A DNA stretch of 64,000 nt from Cyanidioschyzon merolae (taxonomy: Eukaryota): assembly GCA_000091205.1 (NCBI GenBank), contig AP006502.2. One strand, written 5' to 3'. The notes beneath the pieces are model-generated. The model was not told the origin of the DNA and did no database searches. It was given only the letters and a program-made list of their open reading frames with translations. Made by a program: the position numbers and the translations under genes. The first letter of the stretch is position 1. Each line of letters starts with the position of its first letter. Positions 1-29,744 of the stretch are shown piece by piece.

Positions 1-648
1 GCCTGATGGCTTGGGATTCCATTGCGGTTGGCCATGACTCCGTCCGGAGGTGCGTTCGCATCTGCATGGCAGCGAGTTTTCCATGTCTGGTCGTTGCTGA
101 TACGAAAGCGTAATCGCTCTCGATCCAGTCATGACATTTGGAACGAATCCGCTGCTTATGTGCTGAGGAAATCGCGAAGACTAGTGAATGCGCGTGTGAT
201 GAGCAATAAACGATACACTGAACGCAGCGATCGGGAACGATGGCGAGGGAGTGACGGCAGCGGAGAATCGATGCAGCCGCGCTAACACAGTAAACAACAT
301 GACGAGCATCTCTGAAAGCGTACTACGCTCGCTTTACCAAAATTTACACTCTACCGATACCACGCACCACATCAAAGAGCTGCGTTCCACTCAACAGAAC
401 CTCGTCTCTGCCAATAGAGCCGTCGTGTTCCGCTGCGTACTCGTATGAGACGAGTCACAACAGGAACTTGCGCGGTATCCGAATAGGTCATTGGTTTTTT
501 TTCATCGCTAGATGCAATCGTTCCGCCCGAACTGCATCCGGATGCGGATATGTATGCCACCATCCCGCTGCTGTGCGATGCAGGCGATGCGATGCACGCG
601 TCCCTACTCGGAGATCGCTGCCATCCAGCGTCACTGAGGTGTCCGGTT

Positions 649-1416: not shown

Positions 1417-3186
1417 CTAGTGGGGCTTTGCATCGCTCTGGCGTGCCGCTGAGGCCATCACGTCTGAATGTTCCGTCGAGAGGCGCTGCTGCGAAGCGAC
1501 TTGTTGCAGACGCTTCTCAATGAGTTGATTAAACTCCTCTTTGAAGGCGGAAAAGTTCTGCATTGACGTGCGCGCCACCCTGCGACAAAAATCAACGTCC
1601 GATGGTGCAATCACCACTGAGAGGCGCATTCGAGATACATCAATACCGAGGCGGCGCAGATAGAGTAAACGAGGTGCAATACGATCACGCAGCGAGTACG
1701 AGAAAACGGCCGGAAACTCGAGCACCTTCTTCGTATCCATGTTCATGACAGAGCGGAGGAATTTCAGTTTTGGTTGAATGTCTGTGTGGATATCATAAAC
1801 AAGCAGGGGTGGCAACCCACGAACCATCGTGGCGACATCTGCGATTCCCCAGTCGCGCAACAGTGCGACGACTGGCATTGCATTCCGGTCAATGTCCAGG
1901 GCCAGCAGTGCCGGGAACGCGCGGTACGCTTTGTTCAGATCGTCGGTAGTAAGGCCGAGATCGCGCAGGAACTCTGTGACGCGCTCAACTTGTGTGAGCG
2001 ATAAAGTCAGGCAGCGGGGATATGAGCGAACCATGGCCGCGATGCTCTTCGACGAAAGTTGGATACTTGCGTTCAGAAATTCTTCGATCGCTTGCATCTG
2101 TCCAGTGTCCGTTCGCAATATCTCGGGATGCGCGTAAACGATCTGGCGAATATACGGCGCAAAATTCAGTTCAAGGCAGGAACAGAGATGCTGCACAGCG
2201 GCTGCCGCAGTTTCCATTGGAAAATCAGTCAACAGCCAGGGTGCACGCGGAAACAAGCGTCGGAGAATATCGCTTGAAGGCTCAAAGCCGCAGCCCTGCG
2301 GCGGATTCTGGACCAGAAATGTAAGCATGGTCTCGAGCTGCTGGCAGTCGCAAAGACGACGCTGCGCCTGCTCCAAGAGCAGAAGCCGCACTAATTGGGC
2401 AGTGTCAAGACCAAAGCGTCGGAGCTGCCGGAGCTGTTCGCTCTGATTCTCTGGAATAGAGCACCATACTTCGAGGGGAATCATCGGATCCATCAAGAGG
2501 TTCCAGCATTCGGCAGCAGTGATGGAGCTCGCGGAAGATATTTGCTGTACAGCAGCTCCAAGTTGTTTCGCTGTCTCCACCTCGAGGCTCTTCATGTCTC
2601 TTTCGAGCAAAGCTTGCAAGTTCGTCGGTGTACATCCAAAAGCCGCCAAGTATTCTAGCGCGGAAGGCCAAGTTGCCGGAACCGGTTGCAACGCGATTTG
2701 TTCCACGATATCGCGTGCGAGGCCGTAGGCGCATAGGGCTCGAACAAAAGCTTCCGCGGTGCCGTGAGCAAGCTCTGGAGCGTTCGTGTTCCATGAATCT
2801 TCCCCTGATACCTGCGTAAAGATGCGCGACACCTCTGGACTCTCAACTGGAGTTTCCGTGGCCTGATTTTGTGCTTTCTCGTGAGTCTGTGGTTCCTTTG
2901 AAGGTGTTCCTCGCGACCGAGTCTTTAGAGCCACCGCAAAGCGTCCAATGCGCTTGGTCAAATTCTGGAAGAGGTCACGAGCGCGAGATGCTTGATTTTG
3001 GTCACTCTGGGGGCCACCATTGTTCCCGAAATGGCAGCATGTGTCGATGTACACGGATGCGCGGTGTGGTCGTTTGCGACTAACGGGAACAAGCGGCGCA
3101 TAGCAGCTACGAGCGCCTCGGGAACAGTCCCATCGCTGTAGAGGCACCCACAGCACAGTTGACGCAGCTGAGGCTCCTGAAAACAT
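1417..3186 (-). CDS. mTERF-family protein (mitochondrial/plastid transcription termination factor-like), 589 aa, ATG start
   Basis: Continuous 589-aa ORF starting at a true ATG (revcomp of 3184-3186). Repeated mTERF-type motifs are present: FLRDLGL, YPRCLTLSL, FPALLALDI, LPPLLVYDI and EFPAVFSYSLRDRIAPR. The family assignment comes from motif recognition only. Confidence 0.7.
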   Translation of the reverse strand: MFSGASAASTVLWVPLQRWDCSRGARSCYAPLVPVSRKRPHRASVYIDTCCHFGNNGGPQSDQNQASRARDLFQNLTKRIGRFAVALKTRSRGTPSKEPQTHEKAQNQATETPVESPEVSRIFTQVSGEDSWNTNAPELAHGTAEAFVRALCAYGLARDIVEQIALQPVPATWPSALEYLAAFGCTPTNLQALLERDMKSLEVETAKQLGAAVQQISSASSITAAECWNLLMDPMIPLEVWCSIPENQSEQLRQLRRFGLDTAQLVRLLLLEQAQRRLCDCQQLETMLTFLVQNPPQGCGFEPSSDILRRLFPRAPWLLTDFPMETAAAAVQHLCSCLELNFAPYIRQIVYAHPEILRTDTGQMQAIEEFLNASIQLSSKSIAAMVRSYPRCLTLSLTQVERVTEFLRDLGLTTDDLNKAYRAFPALLALDIDRNAMPVVALLRDWGIADVATMVRGLPPLLVYDIHTDIQPKLKFLRSVMNMDTKKVLEFPAVFSYSLRDRIAPRLLYLRRLGIDVSRMRLSVVIAPSDVDFCRRVARTSMQNFSAFKEEFNQLIEKRLQQVASQQRLSTEHSDVMASAARQSDAKPH

Positions 3187-4902
3187 AACTAAGCACCAAC
3201 AACACCACCTTCGAATTGCGCGTGTACAGGTCAGCGTGGGTTAATCGTCTGGCACCCCTCCCCCATAGCGCCCCAGCAGCGAGAAGAAGCTCACCGAGCA
3301 GTTTCCCTTCGGCAGGAGCCCCGCCAAGCGCTGCACAGATCCGCTCGCCTCTGGCACCTCTGACGCCGCAGTCGGTGCCGTCGCCTGCGCACAGATCAGG
3401 CGTGACGCGTCGTCCGATCGGTGCAACGTTGACACCCGGGACGGGTGAACACGACGCCGGTGCACGCGACCTGCTGGAATCTGCAATGACGCTGGGATCG
3501 ATGCCGTCCCCCGGAAACCAAAAGCATCTGTATATCCTGGAGCGTCTAGGCATGCTCATCAATAAAGCATTAATAGTTGTCTTTTCCATGGCGCCGCGGT
3601 TCTTAGCTGGCGACATTCCTCGAACTGCGGCGCGTCGCCACCTGCACATCCCCGTTTTCGGGGAGTTTCTTGTCACATGGATACCTGCTAATCGAAGAGA
3701 TTGCGAACGATTTTGCTTCCAGGGCTAGCGAGAGAGAGTCGAATCTCACCAGAGACCACTCGCTTCGTTGGGGTCTCGAGTAGCCAGGCCACCGTTCTCA
3801 CTGGAAAGCATTTACCGCCAAGAAGAAATGGCAGTCTGGTTCATGGCATATTTCCTAGAATGGGGTCGTTTTGTGTACGGTCTACGTTCCCGTTAATCGT
3901 CTTGTGCATCAGGCTTTGTTTCTCTCTCTTCTTGTTTATCTGTAAAAGAGCAGACACCACCCAGTAACTGGCAACTAGTAAAATAATGTATTTCCCCTAT
4001 ACAGTAAGAAATGAAAGACAGGAAAGTTTTGCGCACGTTCGAAAGTTCAGGTTCAGGACGGAAGATCCCGCGAGCCGTATGATTCTATCGAGCTCGTGCC
4101 TCACGTGATCCACACTGGCGGGTGTTGTGGCGAGACCTGCGCACCTCGTCCGCAAAGCAGTCCTTTTCTGGAACGAGGAGTGCGCTGCCTGCGCCAAAGC
4201 GTCGTCCCGGTCGCTGAGGTCTCCCGACATGTCGTTTCCGGCCGCTGCCGGTTCCAGATCTATGAGAACGTCCGGCTGGATCCCGAATTGACATTGAAAT
4301 CCCAGCCCGTATCGAGTGCACCATACCTCGACCAGACGCCCCAGCGGTATGGGAAAGCCAATCCGTCTCCGTGCTGTATCGGCAACGGCGCGACTAGCGC
4401 TGAACCGGACGCTCCCAGCAGGCTCGGTGTCGGCGAAACGTACTAAATAACCAGCATCTTGTAGAGACTGTACGGGTGGTGGCAGCTGAAAGAATTCGGA
4501 GCTAGGGTACGAAATGATAGACGGTTTCCCACTTGCTGACGTCCATCTCGAAATCGCAGGGACCCCTGGTCCATTTTTTTCACTGACAAACCGTTTACAT
4601 AGGCCAGCGTTCTCCGATTAGGCGCATTTTTCTTTTCTTACTTTTTTCTGTGTTTTTTTTCAGTGCGCGGTGAGGTATCCATCAATCACCTACCTCCGAG
4701 TTACATTACACCCCTGGTCCATGCGAACCTCCTGCCGATCAGAAATCATGCGGACACGTCACCTGGCGGCGCTTCAGTTGAACACGTGTGCGTGTGCGCG
4801 CGAGGCTGCGTTTGACCGCGAGCGGCGGCGCGCGGCCGTAAATCCCGCACGATGCGAACGTTTTTCCCCAGACGTGTTCGTGACTACAAGGCACGTTTCA
4901 AG

Positions 4903-6327
4903 ATGCCAGGTTCGCAGCCCCTGCGCGTGGCTTGCATAGGTGCTGGATACGTAGGAGGACCAACCATGGCAGTCATTGCGGCAAAGACTCCTCCAGAGGC
5001 TGTACAAGTGCGGGTGCTTGACCTCTCAGCGGAGCGCATTGCCGCCTGGAACTCGGAGCGGCTTCCTATTTATGAACCTGGTCTCTCGGAGTTAGTCTTC
5101 GCTGCTCGCGGGCGAAACTTACACTTCTCCACAGCTATTGATGACGGCATCAAGTGGGCCGACATAATATTTGTGGCCGTAAACACACCAACGAAGGAGT
5201 GTGGTATCGGGGCGGGCGCAGCCGCTGACCTCACTTACGTCGAGCTGGCGGCTCGTCAGATTGCTGCTGCGGCCGATACACCCAAAATCGTCGTCGAAAA
5301 AAGCACTGTACCGATACGCACAGCGGAGGCTCTGAGCGCGATCCTCGAAGCGTGTGGCAGGACCTCGTTCGAGATCCTATCGAATCCGGAGTTCTTGGCA
5401 GAAGGCACTGCGGTACGCGATCTCTGTGAGCCTGATCGCGTGCTCATCGGCGGGGACCTGAAAACCGAGCGAGGGCGCCAAGCGCTCGAAGCCCTCGTCG
5501 AGCTCTACGCCTATTGGGTTCCTCGCGAGCGCATTCTCACGACGAATGTGTGGTCGAGCGAGTTGAGCAAACTCGTCGCGAACGCATTTCTGGCCCAGCG
5601 CGTGTCATCGATCAACTCCATTTCGGCGCTGTGTGAACTAAGCGGAGCACAAATCGACGAAGTCGCGCGCGCCGTAGGCCTCGACAGACGCATCGGACCT
5701 CGCTTTCTTCAGTGCAGCGTGGGCTTTGGCGGATCATGTTTCCAAAAAGACATCCTTAATCTTGTTTACCTGTGTGAGTCGTTTGGTCTGAATGTTGTCG
5801 CAGATTACTGGCGTTCGGTGATCGCCATTAACGATTGGCAAAAACAGCGATTCACGGCGCGAATTTTGCATAGCCTCTACAACACGGCCACAAACAAGAA
5901 AATCGCGATTCTCGGCTTTGCGTTCAAGAAGGACACGGCGGACACCCGAGAGAGCGCCGCCATTGATGTCTGCGGCAGTCTACTGCAGGAATGCGCGAAG
6001 CTGAGTATCTACGATCCCCAGGTGCCAGCCGAGCAGATCTGGTCTGATCTCACGCGAAGATGCCGTCGAACGCGCGACGAGCTCGCTGCCTATGTGACGC
6101 TCGCCGCTACTGCCGACGAGGCCGCCGCCGGCAGCCACGCAATTGTGATCCTCACCGAATGGGATGAGTTTCGAACCCTTGATTATTCGAAAATGTACAA
6201 GAGCATGTGCCGACCGGCATTTCTGTTCGACGGCAGGAGCGTCTGCGACCTCAAAGCGCTCTCCGAGATCGGATTTTTATGTTATGCGATTGGAAGCCCG
6301 GATGACTCGCGAATTCAACTTCGTTAG
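4903..6327 (+). CDS. UGDH: UDP-glucose 6-dehydrogenase
   Basis: ORF 4852-6327. I re-anchored the start to the ATG at 4903 (MPGSQPLRVACIGAGYVGGPTMAV), which opens the Rossmann NAD-binding motif GAGYVGG. The protein is about 474 aa with full-length collinearity to eukaryotic UGDH, including VEKSTVP and the CDLKALSEIGF end, in a single exon. Confidence 0.9.
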   Translation: MPGSQPLRVACIGAGYVGGPTMAVIAAKTPPEAVQVRVLDLSAERIAAWNSERLPIYEPGLSELVFAARGRNLHFSTAIDDGIKWADIIFVAVNTPTKECGIGAGAAADLTYVELAARQIAAAADTPKIVVEKSTVPIRTAEALSAILEACGRTSFEILSNPEFLAEGTAVRDLCEPDRVLIGGDLKTERGRQALEALVELYAYWVPRERILTTNVWSSELSKLVANAFLAQRVSSINSISALCELSGAQIDEVARAVGLDRRIGPRFLQCSVGFGGSCFQKDILNLVYLCESFGLNVVADYWRSVIAINDWQKQRFTARILHSLYNTATNKKIAILGFAFKKDTADTRESAAIDVCGSLLQECAKLSIYDPQVPAEQIWSDLTRRCRRTRDELAAYVTLAATADEAAAGSHAIVILTEWDEFRTLDYSKMYKSMCRPAFLFDGRSVCDLKALSEIGFLCYAIGSPDDSRIQLR

Positions 6328-6401: not shown

Positions 6402-7076
6402 TTAGAACGGTGCGATACTGACGCGCATGAGCTCCACGTCGTAAGTTAGCGTTTCATTTGGCGGAACGAGGCAGCCTTGGCCCTCAATGCAGACGCCCCG
6501 CTCTCCGAAGCCTAGTTCACTGGGCACGATTATTCGACGTTTGCCACCAGTTTTCATGGTTTCGATTCCCTTCTCCACGCCCGGCACCATCTGCTTCTTA
6601 CCAAAAATGAATGCCAGCGGCTTTCGCCCTTTTGCAGTTGTGTTATCGAAAATCGTGCCATCCGATAGGTACCCAATGTAGTTGATGACCACGAGGTCGC
6701 CGTCCTTCGGGCTAGCTCCAGTGCCTTCCTTGTAGTCGCGATAGAGCACACCGGATGGATCGCGCACGAACTTTGAGAGGTCCAATTTTTGAGGAGTCGT
6801 AGTGCCTGCCGCTCGTGCGCCTTCCAAGCCCGGAAGCCGGAGCCACGCACTCACGCCAGCCATAAATAAAAGGCGTTCTAGCAACTGACGTCGGGTCAGC
6901 GATAGAGCCAGCGGCAGGGCTGCTCGCAAAGTCGTTCTTCCGTTGCTACCAGCCGACAGGAAGCAACGGCTACGATGCTTTCGCGGCAACTCCTTTCCAG
7001 AACGAGTCCTCTGCAGGTTCCTAGCGTTGAGGGCGACTCCGTGCCCAGGCACAGGTTGCACACCGACGAAAACCAT
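6402..7076 (-). CDS. FKBP-type peptidyl-prolyl cis-trans isomerase with N-terminal twin-arginine lumen-targeting-like presequence
   Basis: ATG at revcomp of 7074-7076. The C-terminal FKBP domain reads GDLVVINYIGYLSDGTIFDNT...AFIFGKKQMVPGVEKGIETMKTGGKRRIIVPSELGFG...LTYDVELMRV. Upstream the sequence is TRRQLLERLLFMAGVSAWL...ARAAG, which gives an RR motif, a hydrophobic core and an AxA cleavage-like site. Confidence 0.8.
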   Translation of the reverse strand: MVFVGVQPVPGHGVALNARNLQRTRSGKELPRKHRSRCFLSAGSNGRTTLRAALPLALSLTRRQLLERLLFMAGVSAWLRLPGLEGARAAGTTTPQKLDLSKFVRDPSGVLYRDYKEGTGASPKDGDLVVINYIGYLSDGTIFDNTTAKGRKPLAFIFGKKQMVPGVEKGIETMKTGGKRRIIVPSELGFGERGVCIEGQGCLVPPNETLTYDVELMRVSIAPF

Positions 7077-7289
7077 AGCACTCCGTGTTCCTGCTCGAAA
7101 CGGCTGCAGCAGTTGCAGGACAGTGCGTCTTCAAGGATGCTGCTGGTGCGCACATGCGTCAGCGGCCGATCGCCTACACCCACCAGATGGGACGGTTTGT
7201 TTGTTATCGAATATGTGCCGCTATCTTTCGCTCCTGAATTAGGTTTTGCGTTGAAGGATCGATGCTTTGGACTTGAGCATGATGGAAGG

Positions 7290-8372
7290 GCTCGTGGATT
7301 GATCCGTAGTTTTAGAATTTTCGGTTGTCGTTTTTGCTTGCTCATCTAGACTCTCTTCTGCGGGACGTCGTTCTGACCCCGGCATCGAGATGATTCGCGA
7401 CGCACGCGAACAAGGATTCGTAAACTAAATAACAGGATCACCCGGTTCGGAAGTGCAAGCGTCCATCCTTTTACTGTTTCTTAAGTGAAACGTATTCATA
7501 GCACGCATTCTTCATGTTTTCGATCGTTCTGTTTCAAGGTGACTCATGGGCGCTGCAATGCACGCCAGTGAATTGACGTCGAAAACAGCATCTCACAAGT
7601 TCATGCCAAAACTTGACAACATATATGATGTGGAATCATCTATTCCGTTCGAAAAACAAATCAGCCTCTCCTTGTGGCTAACGATGAAACCGCATACGAC
7701 AGCAGTAGAATTCCGCAGACGGGATTCGCTCCTGAAGGCTGACGTCTCTTTGATTCATACGGAAAAGGAGCCCGGACTCTGACGAACTTCAGTGATCGCA
7801 GCGATCGACTCCACTGGTGCATGCGTCACCGCTTGGCGTGAGGCGAGCGCAGACGGATCGAACATTCTCGGTGTACTCCCCAGTCTCGATTTTCTTTCGG
7901 TCCTTGTTTCATCATAGACAAGATACCATTCCACAAATCCTCGATCGAATGGAGCAGCGTGTGCTTGCGTTTTCAGCAGGCAGATTACTCACTCGGAAAC
8001 CGCCCTAGAGAAGCCCGTGACCATCGAGCGATGCACCTGGCGCGGAATCCGGCGCTGGCATCGAGGGGGACCTTCTGTTCTCGTCAAGGGCATGAACCAG
8101 GCGCCAAACCGAGCGGTCACACGTCACAGGATAGCCCCTGGAGCACGTGAACCGGATACATCTGGGAAGACCTGGCCGCAGTCAACCGTCACAACAGCGA
8201 ATCACGGATCGGGGCTGTATACCAGGAGCATGTGGATTGCATACGAAGCGTAGATCACAACGACGGCATGTGCACGAACCGCACTGAATACAGCTGGGGG
8301 CAGCGAAATCGGGACGTGACTGCTGACACGAACAATCCTCGACTGCTGAAAACGGAGCTCGATGGATACGAT
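7290..8372 (+). repeat. Copy A of a ~1.07-kb dispersed repeat, forming a near-identical inverted pair with 19293-20360
   Basis: Direct sequence comparison: 7300-7560 equals the reverse complement of 20100-20350, and 8241-8370 equals the reverse complement of 19295-19420. Internal ORFs such as 7546-7782 and 8017-8253 reappear almost identically on the opposite strand at 19876-20112 and 19405-19641. Homology stops at about 7290 and 8372. Confidence 0.85.
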
Positions 8373-8838
8373 TGAGCGGCTTATTTATAGTCGTAGATAA
8401 GAGAGCGAGGAAGAGAAAGCATTCCCCGATGTTTTTTCTCAAAGACTGGTGTCCATAACTGTGTGAAAAGACCGGAACCTTGCTGTATACGTCCGAGTTG
8501 CGTAGAAGACCCTGTTCCATTTTATTCTGAAATGAGTGTCTCGTCATGATGCGACTCACACATAGAATCGCAATGATGGAAAACGTCCGCCATAGCGACT
8601 GCAAAAATCGCTCGACATGCTCCTAGCGGTGCAACGAGGAGCCATCCGACCAGATGACGTTTGAGCGAACTCGACGCCGGAGATACGCCACCCAACATGC
8701 ACCAGAGTCGACGCCTGCGACCTGCTCAGGACCGCGTTCAGGACATTGGCTCGCGTAGGATACGGTGTGAAGATGCTGGCGTCCGTGGTGTCGGTCAGAG
8801 GCTCCGACTCTCCGCCTTGTACTCAGCGAATAGGTTCC

Positions 8839-9258
8839 TTAAGATTGGTCTCCTGCGCCGCGACGATAGTTCGGAATCGGGGGCGTCTCAGTTGGAATCC
8901 AACGCGGCCGCTTTGGAACACTCAGGTCGGGCTCCTTAGCCAGAACTTGCTGATCGGGCGGTAGCTCTGCAACCGCCGCGTCTCGAGAGCGCGCCAGTCG
9001 CAGCAGGCGTTGCTGTAGCATAACCTCACGACGCAAGCACTGTTTATTGTACGCCCGGGCGAGTTCCGCGCCACGAGCGAGCACTTCCTCGCTCAGCTCG
9101 AGCGTTACTTTTTCGGGTGCTAACGCTGCTGTAAGTACGTCCGGCGGCTCTGCGCGTTTCTCCGTGCGGCCACTCGGTACTCGCTTCGGCGTATCGAGCG
9201 CTGGTCGACTCCCAAAGAACCAACGCTTGCAACCAGGACACAATCGTATCCTGCTCAT
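8839..9258 (-). CDS. Hypothetical small protein with N-terminal CPGC motif, start placed at internal ATG
   Basis: The ORF track starts this at a GTG (9285), and the first ATG is at revcomp 9256-9258. The product has no recognisable family and is basic and low-complexity. I keep it only because the genome is gene-dense. Confidence 0.2.
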   Translation of the reverse strand: MSRIRLCPGCKRWFFGSRPALDTPKRVPSGRTEKRAEPPDVLTAALAPEKVTLELSEEVLARGAELARAYNKQCLRREVMLQQRLLRLARSRDAAVAELPPDQQVLAKEPDLSVPKRPRWIPTETPPIPNYRRGAGDQS

Positions 9259-9835
9259 GAGACCGATCAATTCTCTACTATGCACAGGAGACTGAAGCCG
9301 CCGCCACCGCCGGGCTACCGGTAACCACTTTTTTGGCGAAAAACCGGTGTCTGGGGCGCTCGTGTGGAACCCAGCGAGTACCGCCTCTCAGCACAAAAAT
9401 GGCGAAGCGCATCATGGTATCGTATCGACGCCGTCCATAGACGCTCGACACCTGCAGTACGAGCCAGTTACTAGAGCTCCCTCGCTTTATTGGAACACCG
9501 CTCTGCTGCCGGGAGCAGGTAGGAGCTCTCGAGAGAGCGCTGTACCCGGCACGCTGATAGCCGATAGTCTTTGCGAGTTACGTTGATCGAGCACTTGCGC
9601 TGCACGGCAACGCCGTTCTGCAACGTGGAGAAGGTAGAGGCTCCCTGGGGCAGCGCTGAGTTTCGGCACGCCATTCTCAGTAGTCTTCGCACTTTTGGAG
9701 ACTGGCGGTTCGGTTTATTTTCCAAGGTTATAAAAAGTCGCAGGGCAGCAGCTTTCCTGTGTCCAAGTTCAAGGGTTTCATGGCTGAGGGCAGTCTCTGC
9801 AAACATTCGGTTCATCGAAACTCACGAGCGACGCC

Positions 9836-10510
9836 ATGAACGGCAGAAAAAGTATTCTTGTCTACGAAAAATCCAGCGCTCCGCTCTTGCGCGTGCTCGG
9901 AGCGGTCGGTGTCTTTCAGGTCGCTGCCTGGGCTGCTTTCGGTGCGGTATCGTGGCGGAATAGCGGCGCGTCGACGAAAGCAACCGCTGCTACTAGTCAA
10001 GACACGGAGGAGGACGCGCCTGGGACGAGAAGCGTCACGGAAAACACGCACAGTCCCTCGAGTCGTTATCAGACATGGTGGCCTGCAGGTGGCCTGCTCG
10101 TTTCGGTTCTTTTCCTGCAGCTGATGAGTTTTTACGCCAAACGGAACGTGAAAAGCATCAGGTTTGTCGGAGACTTTGCGGAAAGAGCTCGTATCGTCAC
10201 TCACTCTCTCTTCCGTTCGGGCCGGGAAGATCAACCAAGTCGGTTGGTGCTGGAGGTTCCGACCTTTCAACTACATGCCAGCGCTACTGGGCGCACTGCT
10301 ACTAAAGAAGACCTCGTGACATTCGGCATTCGCGGATACAACTCGTTTTTCCAGATTGACCGAAAGCGGGGGCAAATCTACGATGCAACTTTGTTGAATG
10401 CGCTGCTTGAGAAAGGCGGTCAAGGCGTGATGCAAGCTGCTGCACAGCGGATGAAAACTTCGACGCCAAAACGGACGCCGTCAGCTCGCGAGCGCGCAGT
10501 CAACAGTTAG
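9836..10510 (+). CDS. Hypothetical membrane protein of 224 aa with two predicted TM segments
   Basis: True ATG start. Hydrophobic stretches are LLRVLGAVGVFQVAAWAAFGAV and WWPAGGLLVSVLFLQLMSFYA. I recognised no conserved motif. Confidence 0.35.
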   Translation: MNGRKSILVYEKSSAPLLRVLGAVGVFQVAAWAAFGAVSWRNSGASTKATAATSQDTEEDAPGTRSVTENTHSPSSRYQTWWPAGGLLVSVLFLQLMSFYAKRNVKSIRFVGDFAERARIVTHSLFRSGREDQPSRLVLEVPTFQLHASATGRTATKEDLVTFGIRGYNSFFQIDRKRGQIYDATLLNALLEKGGQGVMQAAAQRMKTSTPKRTPSARERAVNS

Positions 10511-13500
10511 GCATGTCCCGGGGGCTCGTCGTTTGACGCATGGCCTGGATGCGCCTCGAAACCAAGATATTCATAGCATCGAAGGCTCCAGGCACGCCCT
10601 CAAATGTCCGACACGCTGTGAAATGTTGCGCTCGTCCTGTTGGGATGATCTCGTGACACCAAGTGCCACGGGGACCAGCGTTCTTTCATGGCATCGCTGC
10701 TGCGTATGGGACGGACCAAAATATCGAGCGTACCGCTCAAGGGTCTGCGCGTCTAGCTCCGCGACTCTTGACAGGAAGCGAGACCTGTACCGGCATGCGG
10801 TTGTGCAGCGCTTCCAGCGGACGGTTCTGCAACGTTCAAGGGTAGTTTCGAAGACCAGGGCTATACTTGAAACAGTTGGTGCTTCGTGTAAGCACTGGGA
10901 TGGTTCGTAGTTTCCAGCGCCGCATGCACCCGCTGTCTCCGGGCGGAGCATGATACCGGTCCGATTTCTGCACATCGTCTGGAACACCTTTGCTGCACTT
11001 TTGGAGACGCTTAATTCATGTTCATTCGAGGAAGAACAATTGGGCATCCTGCCTAAACACCGTTTAGTACGCAAAACTAGCATTCATAGCGAACTCACAC
11101 GGACGCTTGACTCTGGAGTTTCGTGTTTCCCGATTTTCACTAGGCGACTGCACACAGGCATACGCAAAAATCGTCGGATTGGCGTTTCATGTCAGTTTCT
11201 CGCGCGTGACTTTATCAGAATATAATGCTCGTTATATACGAGATCCAAGGTAACGTAACCCATACTTCGCATCAAGACGCTTTGGTCTGCGAGGATGCCA
11301 CGGCTTTTTGCCTCAGTCACAGGATGTTCATTTTTTATCGCGCGGCGAAACGGTGCAGGTTGTCGACTGCCTCGCATTCCGACCTGCAGCAGCCCCAGGA
11401 TGTTGTGGCACGCGTTGTCGTCGCCACAGTTCCATGTGGTACCTCTGCTGGGAGAGTCCGCGCTGCTCCCGCATCTGACACACTTGCAGTGCAGTGCTCT
11501 GTGAATCCGAGACATGTACGAGTTCCTTTCTTTTCCTTTCTCTCGACTCATTCTTCGTGATGACCCACGTCGTCGCTCCGTTCGTGTTCGAGAGGCGACT
11601 TGCGCACCGCCAACACGGCAGCGACGTCCGGCATTCATAGAGGTCCGCCATACGCACATCAGGCGTTCCCGTTGACTTGTTTGTTATCGCTGCCCATGCA
11701 CTGGACGTATGACGGGATATCGGACGCTTGGCGCCCTCATCCCGCTCTCCGAGCTCGATGACCGACTCTTCGCCACTCGGTACCAGAAGAGACTGAACAT
11801 CCATGGATTGCCCTCTGGTCGAACGTGGAACGAATGGCACCTCAGGCGCTGGTATCCAGAACGAGCTCTGTCTCGCAGTCATTCCGGAAGAATGCTCAAA
11901 TACGGCCGCAGACGAGTTTCGGAAGCTTCCGAGTCTGTTATCTCGCAAATGCGGAGACAAGCAGTCACGTCGTCCGTCCGTCCGTATGTCTGTCTGTTGA
12001 TTCTTGTTTTTAGCGTTTTCCTCGCGCTGTACGCGATCCTCGCCTCGAGGTCCTTTCTTCTGCTGGTGTAAATGACGCGTTTCTGAACCGGCGCCCGAGT
12101 CCGCAGTGGTGACTGCGTCCGGAAAAACCCGGCTCCACGCCTACGAGCTTTTGGTTGCGTTTCAGAGACAGGAGGCTTTCGTCGTTTCCCATTCGACTCG
12201 AAATATTCGACTATGCTCTCGGTTGCACACTGACATCGTATCCATCCGAGAGAAAACGGAAACCTATTGGGCTGTTCATTGCTTCGGCAGCTTCGATATG
12301 GAGGCTTTGCTGGTAAACCTTCCTCTTTATTTCCCGCCTCGATTTCCTTTCGACTTCTTTCATTCTCAGAACGCCGTGGCGTCGCAGAGTGCCCATGACG
12401 GCCAAGTAACTGACACGAACGTAACAAGTTGTGAAGCCACGCTTCGTCGGCAGCAGACAGAACGTCCTGGGGTGGCGCTCGCCTCTTCTGCATTCTGTAT
12501 CCTGCTCTCGCCAAGTATTCGAAGCGTTTATACCCTCTTCCAGAGGTTTGCGCCGTCGAGGAAGCGCCAAGCGCGTCGTACACCTATGCTTCAGTCAGAG
12601 ACAAACCCTAGTCAATGGGTCTCTTCAAGTCTTCGGCGATCTCGACCGCCAGTTTCATCTTCGCTTTCCGTTCTATATCACTTGGCGGGCCGAGAACGTC
12701 GACACCCTCGAACGGTCGAGTGACGGCGGCCCAGAGAAAGTGTTTCTCTCTGTTTCTATCTGTCTCTCTCGAGACGCCCTTGGTTGCGTTTCCATGCATG
12801 AGCTGGATGTAACAGGCGGCACGACACCCGAGATTCATCTTGATGTGATGCGTTTGTATGGTCGCCCCTCAAAATGGAAAGCTCTGCGGGCATCTGTGTC
12901 ATTCCAAAGAAATACCCATTCGGTGACACTCAATGTTTCGGCATTCCGGTTTGTGCTTACGTTCGCCCGCCTCGGAGGCATTCGCGTTCACCAGCGCTCG
13001 ACACGAGACTCGAGCCAATGGCTCTGGCGTGGTCTCGGGTGCTCCGCTCGGTAGAGGCGATTCAGCGAGCGCAAAGAAAAGTTCCTATCCGGGAACGGAA
13101 GCGCGTTTGTGGCCTCTTCGCTCGTCCAATCTTTGACCTTCTTGTACCTAAGTCTTTTCTGTGATAGCAGCAAGGGAAACAAACGATCGTGTGACCCGAG
13201 TCAAGGGTCTCCAGAGAGAATCCTTAGCACGCGGAGGTTCGCAAGGGCGTTGATTTCCTTTTCCAGTCGCTAGCCCAGGATGAGTTTATACGCGAGACGA
13301 AGGCCTTTATCCGTTTGCGATAGCGCTCTCGGAGGAAAGACTTCAGCTTCAACTTGATATCCGGAACTTTTCCTTCGGTCACTGGTACGCACTCGTCGTC
13401 CATTCTTTCAGCGGAGGAATCGAGCGACACATTTCCTCTGGACACCAGACAAAGTATTCCATCTATTCCAGCAGAATCATTTTTCCTTCCCGATGAAACG

Positions 13501-13782
13501 CATCTTCATCTGCTAAATCGATCGAGAAAACCGCTGATTCCCAGTAACTTTCTATTGGTACAGAGCAAATGCCCCAGTTTCGACAGCACACTACTCTGGA
13601 TGCCCCTACGAGCGGCGCGTCGCCTCGATTCGAACACCACCTGTCCCCCGTTCTTTTGTCGTGCAAACCTTGAATAGTTTTCTTCTACGTTTCTAGGATT
13701 CAACCTAGTTAAGTTTTTGTTTCAGGTGCACTTGGAAGCAATGACCTGTGTCGTTTCGTGACCCACAGTGCGGACCTATGCA

Positions 13783-14767
13783 ATGCTTGACCTGGGTTCA
13801 ACCGTTCTCGCGGTTTGCGGTGTAGCGCTAGCCGTCGGCGTCCTTTGCATGATGGGCGCCAACGACGTTGCGAACGTACTGGGAACTGCCTATGGTGCTG
13901 GTGCATTGCATGTACCAGTGTACTCAGGGCCAGCGAGTCTTTGGGCACGAATCAAAGGGGCAGCTCCTCTGATCCTTTTCGCGGGAGTTTTCGAGTTCGC
14001 GGGAGCGCTCTTCGCCGGCGCGAGCGTGACCGAACACGTCAGCTCCCAACTTGTCTCTGGTGGATCGGCTCGTCAGCGAGCTATCGGTGCCCTGGGGTGT
14101 CTGCTGGCGAGTTTTAGCCTTGTGACGGGGAGCACTGTGGCCGCACTGCCTGTATCTGCGTCCCACGCAACCGCTTCCGCGGTTGTTGCCAGCGGGGCGT
14201 ATCAGGTCTGGCGGCAGCGCTTTGCCAGGGTTTTGTCGAGTTCAGCTGCCTCAGGCCAACCGGAAGCGCCCATGTTGGTGCACTGGCCAGCGGTCTGGTC
14301 GATGTTAACCGCCTGGACCATGTCACCGTTTGTAGGCTTTCTTTCCGGCTACGTGCTGTATTTTATTTGCGGAGCTCGCTGTATCTCCGAGGAGGTTCTG
14401 GGACTACCCTTGCTCGCTGGCGCAATCATCGGTACTTTATCCATTTTCGTGTTCACGGCAGGCCCGCCCGATCTTCGTTTCCTCTTGAGGGACTGGATGG
14501 CCCCCATTGCGGCCGCAACGAGTAGTTTGGCGTTTGCAGTTGCTGCAACGGTGTTTCTGGTCAAACGGAGAGCATTACTCGCTCCGTACGTGGACACAGT
14601 GGTGCCTCCAGGCCAGTCCCGAGTACCTCATTCGGGACAGGACGCTTTCTCGAGTGAGTGGCAAGCGGAATCCAGTTCGGAAGAGCCTGCTCATAGTCGA
14701 GCGATAGGCTTGCGGATCTTGATGGTTTTTACGGCAGCAGCGCTGGCGTTTGCGCATGGAGGAAACG
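13783..14767 (+). CDS. PiT-family inorganic phosphate transporter, exon 1
   Basis: The ATG at 13783 follows the track's GTG at 13768. N-terminal PiT signature GANDVANVLGTAYG is present, followed by multiple TM helices. The exon ends ...AFAHGGN directly before a GTAAGT donor at 14768. Confidence 0.75.
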
Positions 14768-14865
14768 GTAAGTATACATCTAGCGATATTGCTTCGAATC
14801 ACTGAACAGCTTACTAACCACGAGGATGCAGTGACGCAATCGCGGTGCTGCGCCTTCACGTCCAG

Positions 14866-15296
14866 ATGTCAGTAACGGCATTGCACCGCTGGTTCACATC
14901 ATCAACTATGCGCGACATGATTCAGGAGATAGAGAAACAGTTGCATCGGGAGCAATCTCGCTTTCGTTATTGGCCCTTGGCGGCGCTTCAATTCTGTGCG
15001 GTCTAACGCTATTTGGTTATCGAGTCATGCAGACAGTAGGGTATGCTATTGCGGAACTGGATTTTGCAACGGGCCTTGCAGCTCAGACGGCGGCGACTCT
15101 CTGCGTATTGGTTGCGACAACGGCTGGTATTCCGGTCAGTACGACACAGATTCTAGTTGCAGCCGTCGCTGGTGCTGCGTATTCGCAGGGCAAACCGATT
15201 CAGTATAGAACGCTAGTTCGAATAGTGCTCGCTTGGCTGCTCACGATACCGCTTTCTGCGTCTATATCGGTGATCGTTCCGTGGTTGTTTCAGTAG
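14866..15296 (+). CDS. PiT-family inorganic phosphate transporter, exon 2
   Basis: Joining 14767 to 14866 across a 98-nt GT..AG intron restores the second PiT signature in frame: GGN|DVSNGIAPLVHII, where the canonical motif is G(A/S)NDVANAIGP. The exon continues to the C-terminal PiT block GIPVSTTQILVAAVAGAAY and the stop at 15296. Confidence 0.65.
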
Positions 15297-17027
15297 CAGG
15301 GCATTTAAACGATAACTTTTTACCGTGGTAGACGGTCGCCTCGTGAGGAATTTTTCGTTTCCCATTGATCCAGACGGAAACGACATGGGTCAAGTACCCA
15401 GAGGGCGCTGCGTATGCACACCTGGAAACGCTGCCCTCTGGATGCTCTGGAAGCTACCGAGCTCCGACGCTGCCTTTTCGCGAGTCAGAGTAGTCTAACT
15501 CGCTTTCCCTCTCCAGGAGCAGTGCGTACTTTAGGGTCAGGCGGGATGATCACACAGACCCGACCTGCAACGGTTCCTTCGAAACAGAATCTGAATGATA
15601 TACCCTTGTTACAGGGCCTCGTGTTTCGCGGAAGCCAATTTGCTCAAGTTACACCAGTTTAGCGCTTCGGCGCCTGATGCCCAAATCCACAGACCCCGCG
15701 AGTACTTCATGGGCATTTATTCGCCATCGGGTGTAGTCTTTCAGCTTGATATTCACATATGAGTTATCGAGAAAGCAGTTTCGACTGATAGCAAGTCTTG
15801 GCAAACGCTGCCAAGCCAAGAAGAGACGAGACGAGAAGAGCATCCCCAGGCACCAAATGCTGTCTGGGCAAGCGTCTCGAAGGTGCGACTGTGAACCGCA
15901 CAGAGGCACCTCGGCGAACGTCCAGTGGCGGCGACAAATGCATTCGCATTAGCTCTGTGAAGGCGGGGCGACATGTAAGCCCGGTCCGCTACCTATGGCT
16001 CCCATACGCCGCTGTGATGTGTGTGCAAGGAGCGACCTAATTCGACCGGCTCGTTGCCTGCTCTCATCAAGCATAGACTCGTTCGCGATAAGAACCGGGC
16101 TCCTAACGAGCTGCACCTAGCTTAGCGTCACCGTGGTCTAGCGCAATGACAGGCGTGCAGACTTTGCCGGGAGCTCACTCGAAGCTGCAGCGTAAAGCAC
16201 TTCGTTTCGAGTCGGAAAGTCGTTGGTTGTGTGCTCGAAATAGGCCGAGAGCGCCAACAGATCCGACCCTGATTTTCAAGATAGAGCAGGTACTGCCTGG
16301 TATTCGTCTATTGCCAAGAATCACTGTCCAGCAAAGGGAGACATAATGCTTCATATACCATTATCTGGGCCCCAAAGAGTGAACCATACCGCCAGTATCG
16401 TGAAGTCGCCAAGTCCTGCACCAATTTTCTACCAGTATTCGTTTTCCCGGGGGCAATGGATAAGGCAAGCGCACGGACGACGCTCATATACTTGCAAGTC
16501 TTTTCTACGACATATTCATAGCGATGCAACTCCGAGACCTCTGAACTGCAGACAGGATCCCCAGTCGAGCGCACTGACCCAAAATGTATCTAATCGCTAT
16601 TGAGCGACGGCTGAATTCCTTGGATGCAGCCTCGCGTTTCAGCGCCTCCTTTATATCACACTCACGAGTGCGTTGCTTCTTTTTCATCCGGTTCTAAGAC
16701 TGACGATTCGAGAGCGATATTCGTATTTCTTTGCACTACTGTCGAAAGATCCAGCGGTAGTCTGCGTGTTGCCAACAGATCTCACCAGAACCGATTCAAG
16801 TAGACCGTGCAGCGTAGGCAACAAACTGCTGGGCGCGGACGCATCACAGTACGAAAGCGTTTGTTTCTGGGATTTCACTTGACGTATAACGTTGCGTACC
16901 AAAAACGACGCAGAATAGTTGTGTCTTTTCCAGGATCCGGAGCGGTGGAAACAGAACGAGCTGTCTCGTCGGCTTCTGATTCAAGGTGTTGGCGAACCTG
17001 ATTGTTCGGAAGGTTTAGTTTACTAGG

Positions 17028-17762
17028 ATGAGCCACCCAGACCCAGGTTTTGTCTCCATGAGTTTCGACTCGGACACGCAGAGAAAGATCGTATCACATC
17101 AGCGCACATGGTCACCATACGTGGATAACGGGGGTACCGTTCTTGCGCTTGCGGGTCGTGACTATGCTATTGTTGCAGCTGACACTCGCTTGTCTGTTGG
17201 CTTCTCCATTCCAAGCCGAAACTTTACAAAAATTGTGCAGCTTACGGATCAGGCGGTGCTCGCAAGTGCAGGCATGGGCGCGGATCGACAATACCTTCAC
17301 AAAATCCTGCGGTCTCGACTCGAAATCTACAGATACCAGCACCAGAAGGAGATGTCTCTGGGCGCAATTGCACAGCTCCTCAGCAATACGCTATACAGCC
17401 GTCGATTTTTTCCGATTTACGCCTTTAATGTATTGGGAGGTATTGACGCGAACACTGGCGAGGGATTCGTCTTCGGATACGATGCAATTGGCTCATTTGA
17501 GAAAGTCAAAGTGGTATGCAGCGGCTCAGGGCAGACATTGGTGCAACCTGTACTGGACCAGCAGCTCGCTGGTCGCCAGAAATACGATGTGCCGGATGAT
17601 CAGCGCATGGCGTCTCTTAGTCTCGCTGAGGCGATCGAGTTGACACGAGACGTGTTCAACTCGGCTGCTGAACGCGACATTCTAACAGGCGATGCACTCG
17701 AACTCTACGCTGTGACTGCCAGCGGTGTTCGGTGCGAACGCTTCGAGCTTCGACGCGATTGA
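17028..17762 (+). CDS. PSMB1: 20S proteasome beta subunit, beta-6 type (PSMB1/Pre7-like)
   Basis: ATG start, 244 aa, collinear with PSMB1. Matching blocks are WSPYVDNGGTVLALAGRDYAIVAADTRLS, TLYSRRFFPIYAFNVLGGID, FNSAAERDILTGDALEL and a ...RFELRRD end. Confidence 0.85.
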   Translation: MSHPDPGFVSMSFDSDTQRKIVSHQRTWSPYVDNGGTVLALAGRDYAIVAADTRLSVGFSIPSRNFTKIVQLTDQAVLASAGMGADRQYLHKILRSRLEIYRYQHQKEMSLGAIAQLLSNTLYSRRFFPIYAFNVLGGIDANTGEGFVFGYDAIGSFEKVKVVCSGSGQTLVQPVLDQQLAGRQKYDVPDDQRMASLSLAEAIELTRDVFNSAAERDILTGDALELYAVTASGVRCERFELRRD

Positions 17763-19292
17763 CACGGTACCACTGACGCTGGGTGCTCGCAAACCAGAAT
17801 ACGTGTGTGTAGCTTGCGGTAGCAGAAGCGTAGCTGGTGCATTTGGTGCGTCTCAGGCTTGAGCGCTTCACGAAGATGACATGGAGCGGGCCCTGGATGT
17901 GGCTCTCGTGGTGGTGGCTGTGGGTCTTCATGAGCCGCCGAATCGGCTGCAACGGCTAAGTAGTGCACGCTGCTACTCTGAAAATGAGTATAAAGTTTCT
18001 AATTTTAAATTTTTCACCGAACCATGTCGTCTCCACTGAGTTATTTTCGATGTTGGTGTCACCGTGATTTAGGCCCAGGCGCATCCATGTTTTTTTGGAG
18101 CGGGTCTCTTGAATGCGTCGCACGTTGAGGACGGAGACCGGACGGTGCGAAAGCATAGCGGAACCTGTGGAACCCCGTCGGGCATGCATCACTGCAAAGA
18201 GAGGTCATGCCGCTCGCAAAGTGCCACTGGGAATCAGCTAACGCGGATTCTTAGCACGGTATGTCCCAGTGCTTGGGTCCGCGTATCGTGGTCGAATCAT
18301 GCTCGAAGCTGGGTATCCTTCCGTAAATGATAGCGCGCTCCGCTGAAGCGGTTGTTTTGCTCCTTGAGCAGTATAAGGTCTGTCACTCTACCTTGATTCC
18401 CGTTTATCCTCGAGACTCGCCAGTAACCAGGAAATAGCTTCTCGCTGCTTCACAGACGCTTCTGACTTTCGAGAGCACTAGACCAGTCCGTCCATCGCAA
18501 GTAGAGCGTGAATCGATCAAGCAGTTCGCGGTATGCCGACCCGTCTCATGTACATGATGCGACGCTGAGCGCGCTGCAACCTGGCTCGCCGTACGGAGAT
18601 ACGATGGTATCAGCATTCCCTTTGAAGTACTTATTCTGGACGATTGGTTCCCTTGACTTGCACCCGCTTTCGGACATGTGCTGCTACCGCTTTTCTAGTT
18701 TTGCGTGACTGAAAACCGTGTTCAGCTCCGGATATCGGCGATGTTGGCTGGGTGCGTCGCCACCCGACTGGCTGAATCTATCCAAGTTTCAGCGGATGTT
18801 GTACCTCTTGGCGCACGCACGAATGGCGTATTCGAGTAAACACGTTGCTCGAATACAAAGTCTCCGGGGAGACTTTGGTGTGAGCGCGGCCACCAACAGA
18901 GCAATCCGAGTCGCGAGATGCGAAGCCCTATGGATGCTCCCGTGCATGCCCGCCTATGTTGCGTGCCAGGCCCACGGGACAGGGAGCATCGCGGCGGTAT
19001 GCCAGCAGGGACCCACACGCGACTTGTCGCTGGGACGCGGGTGCGGATTCGTGCAGGTGCACCGTGGCTAGTGGCGCTGAGGAGCGCGGAAATCTTCTTG
19101 AGTAACGGACGATAACGATGATCGCAGCAACGATTTTGGAATGAAATGGAACGGATTGCTCGACATGGATGCATAAATCGAAGTTCAGGCGTCTTCCGAA
19201 GGTCATCAATGCCAGCGTTTGCAGGTGTTAGATCCGACTGAATCCTCTTCATTTCACGTATATCAAGCTTCATATACAGCGGTTTCTTCTTT

Positions 19293-20360
19293 CCATCGAG
19301 CTCCGTTTTCAGCAGTCGAGGATTGTTCGTGTCAGCAGTCACGTCCCGATTTCGCTGCCCCCAGCTGTATTCAGTGCGGTTCGTGCACATGCCGTCGTTG
19401 TGATCTACGCTTCGTATGCCATCCACATGCTCCTGGTATACAGCCCCGATCCGTGATTCGCTGTTGTGACGGTTGACTGCGGCCAGGTCTTCCCAGATGT
19501 ATCCGGTTCACGTGCTCCAGGGGCTATCCTGTGACGTGTGACCGCTCGGTTTGGCGCCTGGTTCATGCCCTTGACGAGAACAGAAGGTCCTCCTCGATGC
19601 CAGCGCCGGATTCCGCGCCAGGTGCATCGCTCGATGATCACGGGCTTCTCTAGGGCGGTTTCCGAGTGAGTAATCTGCCTGCTGATTACGCAAGCACATG
19701 CTGCTCCATTCGATCGAGGATTTGTGGAATGGTATCCTGTCTATGATGAAACAAGGACCGAAAGAAAATCGAGACTGGGGAGTACACCGAGAATGTTCGA
19801 TCCGTCTGCGCTCGCCTCACGCCAAGCGGTGACGCATGCACCAGTGGAGTCGATCGCTGCGATCACTGAAGTTCGTCAGAGTCCGGGCTCCTTTTCCGTA
19901 CGAATCAAAGAGACGTCAGCCTTCAGGAGCGAATCCCGTCTGCGGAATTCTACTGCTGTCGTATGCGGTTTCATCGTTAGCCACAAGGAGAGGCTGATTT
20001 GTTTTTCGAACGGAATAGATGATTCCACATCATATATGTTGTCAAGTTTTGGCATGAACTTGTGAGATGCTGTTTTCGACGTCAATTCACTGGCGTGCAT
20101 TGCAGCGCCCATGAGTCACCTTGAAACAGAACGATCGAAAACATGAAGAATGCGTGCTATGAATACGTTTCACGTAAGAAACAGTAAAAGGATGGACGCT
20201 TGCACTTCCGAACCGGGTGATCCTGTTATTTAGTTTACGAATCCTTGTTCGCGTGCGTCGCGAATCATCTCGATGCCGGGGTCAGAACGACGTCCCGCAG
20301 AAGAGAGTCTAGATGAGCACGCAAAAACGACAACCGAAGATTCTAAAACTACGGATGAAT
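19293..20360 (-). repeat. Copy B of the ~1.07-kb repeat, inverted relative to copy A and about 99% identical
   Basis: Reverse-complement identity with 7290-8372. The 78-aa ORFs at 19405-19641 and 19876-20112 differ from their copy-A counterparts by 0-2 residues. Confidence 0.85.
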
Positions 20361-20966
20361 CCGTACGCACAACGTGCTAAACTTTGAATATGAATACTGT
20401 CCATCTGAGCACGTTAGGAAAAACACCAAAAAGCATGTACAAAGCGAACAGTTCTGTGTTCCGTTCTAATCTGACGCAGAAGTAGACGCTCCATCGGAGA
20501 CTATCGGAACGCGCAAGACCACGAAATGCAGCAATTTCGAGCGAGTCTCGAGACCTGCCTTTACTGCATATATGGGGATCATCGAGAGTGTTTTCGAAGA
20601 AATTGACCCAAAGACGCTGCACTAGCGCGATACGTGCATGCCGTGGCAAACCGCTGCCGCCACTGCCAGCGCTGTTGTCGTCGGCGCAGCAAACCTACAG
20701 ATCTGGGCCATGTCGATGCATTCTTACCGAGAATAGCTGCATATTCAATTCACGCCACAAGACGTGCCCGCAAGAATGTGCTTTTCGACATCGTGCGATC
20801 AATGCCTAGTGCCTCTGCGATCCAATAATCCGGGGCACTCCCGAAGCATGCGGCGTCGTTGCCACGGGAGCGGGCGGCACTTTTCAGACGTGTGCTGTTC
20901 AGGTTAGACAAACGATTCATCTATGACTTGTCTGACGTGAAGCTCTCAATGCTTTGACAAGCCTTG

Positions 20967-29588: not shown

Positions 29589-29744
29589 TAAAGCATTCCA
29601 GGCGTCTCTTGAGCGTGTTCGTCTCACAAACGAAAGTTCGCCAGCGCCCACGCACGAAAAAGCCCTCGTGGCAGCGGTGCACTGCAGTGGCGATCGCCGC
29701 GCTCTGGACTAGACATCACCAACTTACGCGCAGACGCCTCGCAG

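Follow-up and report, generated by a model that had tools for sequence, protein, structure and literature searches.

The stretch analysed here, referred to as the window, comprises 64 kb from chromosome 20 of Cyanidioschyzon merolae 10D, and contains two near-identical sequences of ca. 1.07 kb that bracket, in inverted orientation, a block of host genes. The initial annotation had placed two hypothetical ORFs, a two-exon PiT phosphate transporter and a proteasome beta-6 gene in this block, and all of them could be located. The features are the following, in window coordinates:

7092–8542, + strand: full element of an old repeat family enclosing arm A (nhmmer; firm from ~7245, weak over 7092–7245)
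7296–8366, + strand: arm A of the near-identical tract (R), from repeat search and MAFFT alignment
8367–11159, unstranded: interior segment B, containing the 139-aa ORF and CMT473C
8839–9258, − strand: unannotated 139-aa ORF, in interior segment B
9836–10510, + strand: CMT473C, a TMEM70-family hypothetical protein, in interior segment B
11160–13611, unstranded: C1, arm of a second repeat (2,452 bp), from junctions in wild contigs
13612–19291, unstranded: interior segment C2, containing the PiT and proteasome beta-6 genes
13783–14767 and 14866–15296, + strand: PiT/PHO4 phosphate transporter, two exons (PHO4 Pfam match)
17028–17762, + strand: proteasome beta-6 (PSMB6), in interior segment C2
19115–20543, − strand: full element of the old family enclosing arm B (nhmmer)
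19292–20362, − strand: arm B of the near-identical tract (R'), from repeat search and MAFFT alignment
37838–39217, − strand: third family member, F4 (nhmmer, E = 4e-87 to 3e-92), full length, intergenic, ~58% identical to A and B
43532–44316, + strand: fourth family member, T3 (nhmmer), lacking the 5' part and with an internal deletion of ~140 bp, ~60% identical overall

The two PiT exons are separated by an intron of the form GTAAGT...TACTAAC...CAG, and the upstream region of every interior gene sits within the block. A comparison with wild strains, which the initial annotation had suggested, was run on metagenome contigs of wild C. merolae, and the block and both flanks are syntenic in them, at ~99.3% identity.

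The inverted repeats are real and end sharply. In MAFFT alignments, R and the reverse complement of R' are 1,071 nt each and differ by 12 mismatches (98.9% identity) with no indels, the mismatches lying at copy-A positions 7301, 7319, 7338, 7484, 7757, 7921, 7959, 7971, 7972, 8021, 8067 and 8238; identity between the copies drops abruptly at both edges of the tract, and a spacer of 10,925 nt separates the arms. The inverted pair therefore stands as initially annotated, although the edges then proposed (7290–8372 and 19293–20360) were off by a few bases. Each arm contains two 78-aa ORFs, which differ between arms by one and two residues, in agreement with the near-identity noted before.

Both arms lie inside longer, older elements. 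The window contains four members of this repeat family, and a fifth is found just outside it, in the neighbouring contig L046; the elements are non-coding, intergenic and ~1.3–1.45 kb long, and we found neither terminal inverted repeats nor other structural hallmarks of mobile elements in them. The arm-B element aligns by nhmmer to the member at 37.8–39.2 kb from 20470 to 19131. Background identity in the A-F4, B-F4, A-T3 and B-T3 comparisons is 55–60%, and 58–60% over the columns that make up the R tract; the part best kept across all members is a core of 190–330 bp (~7640–7970), over 329 bp of which T3 reaches 72%. Family homology runs past the tract to 8542 and 19115, some 175 bp beyond its right edge, and the right flanks (8367–8542 versus 19291–19127) are still homologous, though only 53% identical (z = 9.6 versus shuffles). 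On the left side, A and B show weak homology (z = 2.4 versus shuffles), so that it is chiefly the right flank, together with the nhmmer alignments, that places the tract within older homology. The "recent duplication" proposed initially was thus a misreading, because both elements are old and only their sequence has been homogenised recently.

We found no sign that the repeat encodes a protein or an RNA. Comparisons between family members revealed no codon periodicity, in copy A a stop codon interrupts a 113-aa ORF, and members are shifted in reading frame relative to each other. A Pfam scan of the ORFs in the repeat region gave no match above threshold, and the 147-aa ORF of F4 had no homologue among 5.8 billion proteins; a protein-coding reading was accordingly rejected. 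Likewise, Rfam retrieved no match at the gathering threshold in the whole window, and an E-value search of 7000–8700 gave only one chance-level snoRNA match (E = 3.2). The conserved core folds no more stably than shuffled sequences on either strand (z = +0.21 and +2.61), and with neither an Rfam family nor excess folding stability the RNA-gene reading was also dropped. ARAGORN called a "tRNA-Ala" inside the 43.5-kb member, but the call is not backed by Rfam, and R contains nothing that corresponds to it. An 18-nt core of the family was absent from IMG/VR viral contigs.

The wild contigs show that the tract edges are unchanged in natural strains, since Logan contigs assembled with k = 31 end 30–31 bp inside R, and that the two arms share polymorphisms. 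This comparison covers alleles that share one k-mer with a flank; further inside R, the allele patterns of wild contigs may be mosaics of collapsed assemblies. At site 8238, 10D has T beside interior segment B and G beside C, an arrangement that is reversed in contig L038, while in other wild contigs both alleles adjoin both flanks; sites 7301, 7319 and 7338 likewise show both alleles beside both flanks. These edge-linked shared alleles point to recurrent conversion between the arms.

A 98.9% identical tract next to a right flank that is still homologous but only 53% identical is what we read as a conversion footprint. We thus consider it likely that R and R' are an old non-coding repeat pair made near-identical by interlocus gene conversion, and the idea of a pair maintained by gene conversion, one of the options raised initially, gains support both from the tract within diverged homology and from the polymorphisms common to both copies. 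The starting point would be two members of an old dispersed family of non-coding intergenic repeats, 10.9 kb apart and in opposite orientation. The homologous-recombination machinery of the cell would carry out ectopic conversion of one member by the other across 1,071 bp, and repeated rounds would preserve the near-identity of the pair as element edges and remaining members drift to 53–60% identity. Homologous recombination is efficient in C. merolae, also between repeats on the same chromosome (PMC13353863; PMC3764038). As a by-product of repeat recombination, the pair would have no mobile or programmed function. The locus is a new instance of a process already known, and not a new kind of genetic element.

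Several other explanations could account for the identity of the arms or for their arrangement around genes. The chance that one arm is an artefact of the reference assembly, with reads collapsed or duplicated, is practically nil: the high identity of the arms is all that would suggest it, but they differ at 12 sites, the 10D reference was completed on a clone-by-clone basis (PMC1955436), and JGI, ENA and Logan metagenome assemblies independently reproduce all of the junctions FKBP/R, R/B, C2/R' and R'/RlmN, with contig L038 containing the whole block plus 270 bp of R on either end. The assembly duplication that the initial annotation named as a potential objection is therefore not the case. 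Only geometry, in the form of genes bracketed by identical inverted arms, favours a large composite transposon, or another mobile unit, that captured host genes and has the arms as its terminal inverted repeats, a possibility that we regard as extremely improbable. The outer flanks, GGGCTCGT immediately before R and GTACGCAC immediately after R', are unrelated and contain no direct repeat, so the search for target-site duplications proposed with the initial annotation found none beside either arm. Additionally, the ends of the arms are not the ends of the element, given that family homology continues for ~175 bp past the right edge; the element stands singly at 37.8–39.2 kb and 43.5–44.3 kb and is not itself bounded by terminal inverted repeats; and the block with both flanks is syntenic, and ~99.3% identical, in wild strains. 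No transposase or integrase was found either: among the scanned genes, the only matches were to PHO4 for the cargo and to FKBP and RlmN/radical SAM for the flanks, the arms had no Pfam match above threshold, and the other cargo genes have TMEM70 and Proteasome labels in precomputed Pfam annotations of wild contigs. Together, these results contradict the transposon-like unit put forward in the initial annotation. The copies would also stay alike if their sequence had a function, whether as an RNA gene, as a small protein or as a regulatory module, and both were under purifying selection, and the conservation of the ~7640–7970 core across the family (72% between A and T3), as well as the reported transcription of one interspersed repeat of the C. 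merolae genome (PMC1955436), are in its favour. Nevertheless, an identity of 98.9% that ends abruptly, when the other two members show 55–60% over the same columns, is beyond what selection would produce, and the repeat has no Rfam match, excess fold stability, conserved ORF or protein homologue, making this explanation very unlikely.

Gene conversion is compatible with an active flip-flop, with regular inversion of the 10.9-kb block through crossing-over of R with R' and both orientations present in populations or cultures; neither excludes the other. A 1.07-kb inverted repeat gives crossing-over a substrate, and the outcome would be inversion of the block containing CMT473C, PiT and PSMB6. 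Both linkages on the RlmN side occur in wild contigs: RlmN-R leads to the C2/PSMB6 side in at least eight (L007, L034–L036, L040–L043) and to the segment B/TMEM70 side in three or four (L020, L025/L044, L026), which, added to the efficiency of homologous recombination in this alga (PMC13353863), suggests that inversion isomers exist in wild strains, as read from short-read contigs that cannot phase R. However, the two isomers have every repeat/flank junction in common, and R contains SNP-free stretches of up to 273 bp that exceed the length of k-mers and reads, so contigs crossing R reflect choices of the assembler. Copy-specific markers are limited to ~130 bp of the R edges and ~15 bp of the outer edge of C1, and with so few of them spanning contigs cannot be phased by SNPs. 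All 12 FKBP-side contigs end before R or within the first ~210 bp of it, the RlmN-R-B linkage is also expected from a loop-skipping artefact where R is direct, and the finished 10D sequence shows a single orientation. Regular inversion thus appears possible but doubtful. No serine or tyrosine recombinase domain was found in the scanned ORFs of the repeat region and flanking genes or among precomputed Pfam labels for the called genes of wild contigs covering 5–23 kb. Of the invertible or flip-flop segment proposed initially, passive homologous recombination may still be an option, but not a programmed switch.

A second repeat pair is interleaved with the first. Wild contigs place an inverted partner of C1 between the GDP-fucose transporter and Tdp1 genes, ~2.5 kb to the left of window position 1; the inner junctions are Tdp1/C1 (L001–L006) and TMEM70-side/C1, and the outer ones C1/PiT and C1/TPT (L046, L060–L069). 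The only support for this partner from 10D itself is the accession order BAM83398-83400-83402, which fits the placement. The Tdp1/C1 junction was also considered as a simple inversion breakpoint, an option abandoned for a model with two copies of C1 because all ten TPT-side contigs and many on the segment B and C2 sides end at C1 edges. Seven ORFs of C1 had no NCBI accession by exact look-up, and its 287-aa ORF matched only itself among 5.8 billion proteins. With the C1 pair interleaved with the R pair, several gene orders would be reachable, and it is conceivable, albeit unlikely, that C1' ... R ... C1 ... R' is a natural recombination cassette that cycles gene orders in wild, sexually reproducing populations. 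If so, inversion across C1 would turn R and R' into direct repeats, after which a 19-kb unit could be excised or amplified, and the "simplest" eukaryotic genome would hide structural polymorphism driven by dispersed intergenic repeats.

Arm-to-arm conversion is known from the palindromes of the human Y chromosome, and inversions are mediated by the int22h repeats of F8 and by yeast Ty/delta elements. The C. merolae pair resembles these cases of interlocus conversion and non-allelic homologous recombination (NAHR) between low-copy inverted repeats in that the copies are inverted paralogs, with a sharp tract in older homology and shared polymorphism, and in that the interval between them is invertible in principle; it differs in its small scale, with 1.07-kb arms and a 10.9-kb spacer, and in that inversion here is a conjecture. 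Plastid inverted repeats undergo flip-flop isomerisation and, like R and R' on the preferred reading, bracket a single-copy block, are homogenised by conversion and yield isomers with common junctions that short reads do not distinguish; unlike them, R and R' are nuclear, with arms ~20 times shorter, and equal amounts of both isomers would be speculative here. The likeness to bacterial invertible segments of the Hin/Gin/Cin type and to composite transposons goes no further than inverted repeats flanking genes, because this locus belongs to a eukaryote and shows no recombinase, transposase or target-site duplication, and because the arms are long repeats of a diverged family instead of the short crossover sites of Hin/Gin/Cin. 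Within C. merolae, a "novel interspersed repetitive element" of 253 copies, with a mean length of 3.2 kb, occupies ~5% of the genome, is transcribed and contains a truncated ORF with weak similarity to wsv486 of WSSV (Nozaki et al. 2007, PMC1955436). The R family is likewise dispersed and intergenic, with degenerate ORFs and a comparable local share (~5.3 kb of 64 kb); compared with the description of that element only, it is shorter (1.3–1.45 kb) and, against one copy per 65 kb, four times as dense, and its ORFs found no protein homologue.

C. merolae 10D is used as a minimal photosynthetic eukaryote, and its 16.5-Mb genome is regarded as almost repeat-free and structurally stable. If the preferred reading by gene conversion is correct, old dispersed intergenic repeats still exchange sequence in this genome, and kilobase-scale inverted repeats arise around essential genes such as those for proteasome beta-6 and the phosphate transporter. 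In practice, work on the CMT47x region with gene-targeting constructs or PCR assays runs the risk of recombination with the wrong copy, and Cyanidioschyzon assemblies from short reads, as well as metagenome bins, are expected to break or be mis-joined here. The region is also suited to measuring rates of ectopic conversion and inversion; for Yellowstone strains, long-read assemblies and crosses are already available (PMC13353863).

The near-identical inverted repeats described in the initial annotation are real: the arms R and R′ lie at 7296-8366 (+, copy A) and 19292-20362 (-, copy B), are 1,071 nt each, flank a spacer of 10,925 nt and differ at 12 positions with no indels, and at either arm end identity drops to background inside a few bases. 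By exact protein matches, the window belongs to Cyanidioschyzon merolae 10D, chromosome 20 (1,621,617 bp), and the listed genes stand in consecutive accession order.

Genes around the arms
4852-6327, UDP-glucose dehydrogenase (UGDH), BAM83402
6402-7076 (-), FKBP gene, confirmed by Pfam
9836-10510, CMT473C, TMEM70-family hypothetical protein, BAM83404
between CMT473C and proteasome beta-6, PiT/PHO4 transporter, PHO4 confirmed by Pfam
17028-17762, proteasome beta-6 (PSMB6), BAM83406
20967-22418 (-), RlmN-like radical-SAM enzyme, RlmN confirmed by Pfam
next after the RlmN-like gene, TAF7, BAM83408

The two-exon structure proposed for the PiT gene holds, with an intron at 14768-14865 (GTAAGT...TACTAAC...CAG) whose removal restores the motif GGND|VSN. 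A 139-aa ORF at 8839-9258 (-), unannotated in 10D judging by accession numbering, may be a missed small gene; its protein sequence is identical on 24 wild contigs and weakly matches mitochondrial ribosomal protein L28 in Pfam (E = 0.02).

A sensitive self-comparison indicated that the arms are not unique in the window. Their 329-bp core matches 43556-43873 at 72%, with weaker matches near 38.4-38.9 kb and 44.0-44.2 kb, and in nhmmer searches these matches resolve to one family of ~1.3-1.45 kb with four members within the window; a fifth is flanked by VIT1 and the GDP-fucose transporter gene, and every member is intergenic.

Members of the R family (nhmmer)
7092/7245-8542 (+), member A
20543-19115 (-), member B
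39217-37838 (-), member F4, full length, E ~1e-87 to 1e-92
43532-44316 (+), member T3, 5′ part missing and ~140 bp deleted
3054-3642 of metagenome locus L046, just left of the window, fifth, partial member, E = 9e-58

Nozaki et al. (2007) described a transcribed interspersed repeat of C. merolae, present in 253 copies with a mean length of 3.2 kb and occupying ~5% of the genome, whose truncated ORF weakly resembles WSSV wsv486 (PMC1955436); the R family might be part of this element.

In a four-way alignment with F4 and T3, the 98.9% identity between copies A and B is confined to 7296-8366, and in the columns of this tract the identity of each copy to F4 and T3 is 58-60%. Directly past the right end (8367-8542 versus 19291-19127), homology between A and B persists (alignment score z = 9.6 versus shuffles) at just 53% identity, no higher than that of either copy to T3 or F4; over the next 176 bp outward, no homology between A and B was found (z = 0.8), and that of the left flanks is weak (z = 2.4). 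A 98.9% tract beside a homologous flank of 53% therefore indicates two old paralogous elements, of which 1,071 bp were recently overwritten, and neither a new insertion nor the recent duplication assumed initially. Such overwriting is what ectopic gene conversion leaves behind.

Dozens of hot-spring metagenome contigs, retrieved via the window proteins, are 98.7-99.6% identical to the window, in agreement with the published divergence of 0.71% of the Yellowstone strain MS1 from 10D (PMC13353863). At edge sites linked to a flank within one k-mer, both alleles occur in these contigs beside both flanks. Thus, at position 8238, 10D has T beside segment B (8367-11159, the TMEM70 side) and G beside segment C2 (13612-19291, the PiT/PSMB6 side), contig L038 shows the opposite arrangement and others have both alleles beside both flanks; positions 7301, 7319 and 7338 follow the same pattern. 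This polymorphism, common to both paralogs, indicates that conversion is recurrent. An artefact of the reference assembly was ruled out, because each of the four repeat/flank junctions is found again in independent JGI, ENA and Logan assemblies with the same tract edges, the Logan k = 31 contigs ending 30-31 bp inside R.

The best explanation of R and R′ is that recurrent ectopic gene conversion keeps two old members of a dispersed intergenic repeat family alike. Among the origins initially considered, a pair maintained by gene conversion is supported by the near-identical tract within older homology and by the alleles common to both copies. A transposon-like unit that captured host genes was rejected, since we found no target-site duplication at the arms and no terminal repeats in the family elements. 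The third proposal, an invertible segment, survives in part: programmed switching is unsupported, but passive inversion of the block is plausible because homologous recombination is efficient in C. merolae (PMC13353863), and it is hinted at by wild contigs. Contigs crossing the whole repeat link the RlmN-like gene through R to the PSMB6 side, as in 10D (L007, L034-L036, L040-L043), and the flipped linkage to the TMEM70 side occurs in L020 and L025/L044, plus L026 by edge alleles. Both linkages are expected of a flip-flop; we do not take them as proof because both isomers have identical junction sets, R contains SNP-free stretches of up to 273 bp, longer than the k-mers and reads, and none of the contigs coming from the FKBP side traverses R (12 of 12 end before it or at most ~210 bp into it). 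Maintenance by conversion makes R/R′ a neat case of a known process, in a model genome with a reputation for being nearly repeat-free, and not a new kind of element.

We found no evidence that the R family encodes anything. Differences between members lack codon periodicity, reading frames shift from one member to another, and a 113-aa minus-strand ORF of copy B has a stop in copy A. Nine candidate ORFs gave no above-threshold Pfam match, the longest ORF of the family had no homologue among 5.8 billion proteins, and Rfam did not match the repeat; on neither strand did the conserved core fold better than shuffled sequence, and it was not found in viral contigs. Unusual tRNA genes are known in C. 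merolae. ARAGORN called a tRNA-Ala(cgc) at 43839-43913 (-), inside T3, which is probably a false positive, with no tRNA match in Rfam and the normal T-loop missing.

Many metagenome contigs break at 11140-11210 or 13260-13690, and either end of a second repeat, C1 (11160-13611, 2,452 bp), is seen in two contexts in wild contigs. The inner end adjoins either the TMEM70 side (the window arrangement) or the Tdp1 promoter side (L001-L006, inverted), and the outer end either PiT (again the window arrangement) or the GDP-fucose transporter gene (L046); all ten contigs entering from the transporter side end 48-277 bp inside C1 (loci L060-L069 are among the C1 evidence). The accession order of 10D (transporter BAM83398, BAM83399, Tdp1 BAM83400, mTERF, UGDH BAM83402) fits an inverted C1 copy between transporter and Tdp1, ~2.5 kb left of the window, and together with the wild contigs gives the chromosomal order C1′ ... 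R ... C1 ... R′, in which the two repeat pairs are interleaved. Of the four linkages possible across C1, spanning contigs show three (B-C1-C2, n = 3; Tdp1-C1-C2, n = 1; B-C1-transporter, n = 1), whose phase is untrustworthy because copy-specific markers occur only in the last ~15 bp of C1. In contig L040, 360 bp foreign to the window (1-360), with an 82-aa ORF matching Pfam FeS_assembly_P, are joined at 13346, a third context inside C1. The C1 ORF (11328-12583, -) is one 287-aa frame in some wild contigs and is split (184/210 aa + 204/234 aa) in 10D and others; the 287-aa product matched only itself among proteins, and the ORF is probably non-functional.

A large intergenic near-palindrome at 29670-31603 has arms of ~955 bp, 83-91% complementary, around a spacer of ~24-30 bp, and wild contig L020 terminates inside it. 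The outer arms share homology with 43327-43545, directly beside T3, so the intergenic DNA here resembles a patchwork of old repeat modules. We also observed a tandem pair of 107-nt units at 55274-55489 (109 nt apart, 97% identical), a direct repeat pair at 34538-34765 (88-111 nt, 77-82%), and a 136-bp inverted match between 4574-4709 and 60684-60806, 56 kb apart, with 79% identity (E = 7e-28).
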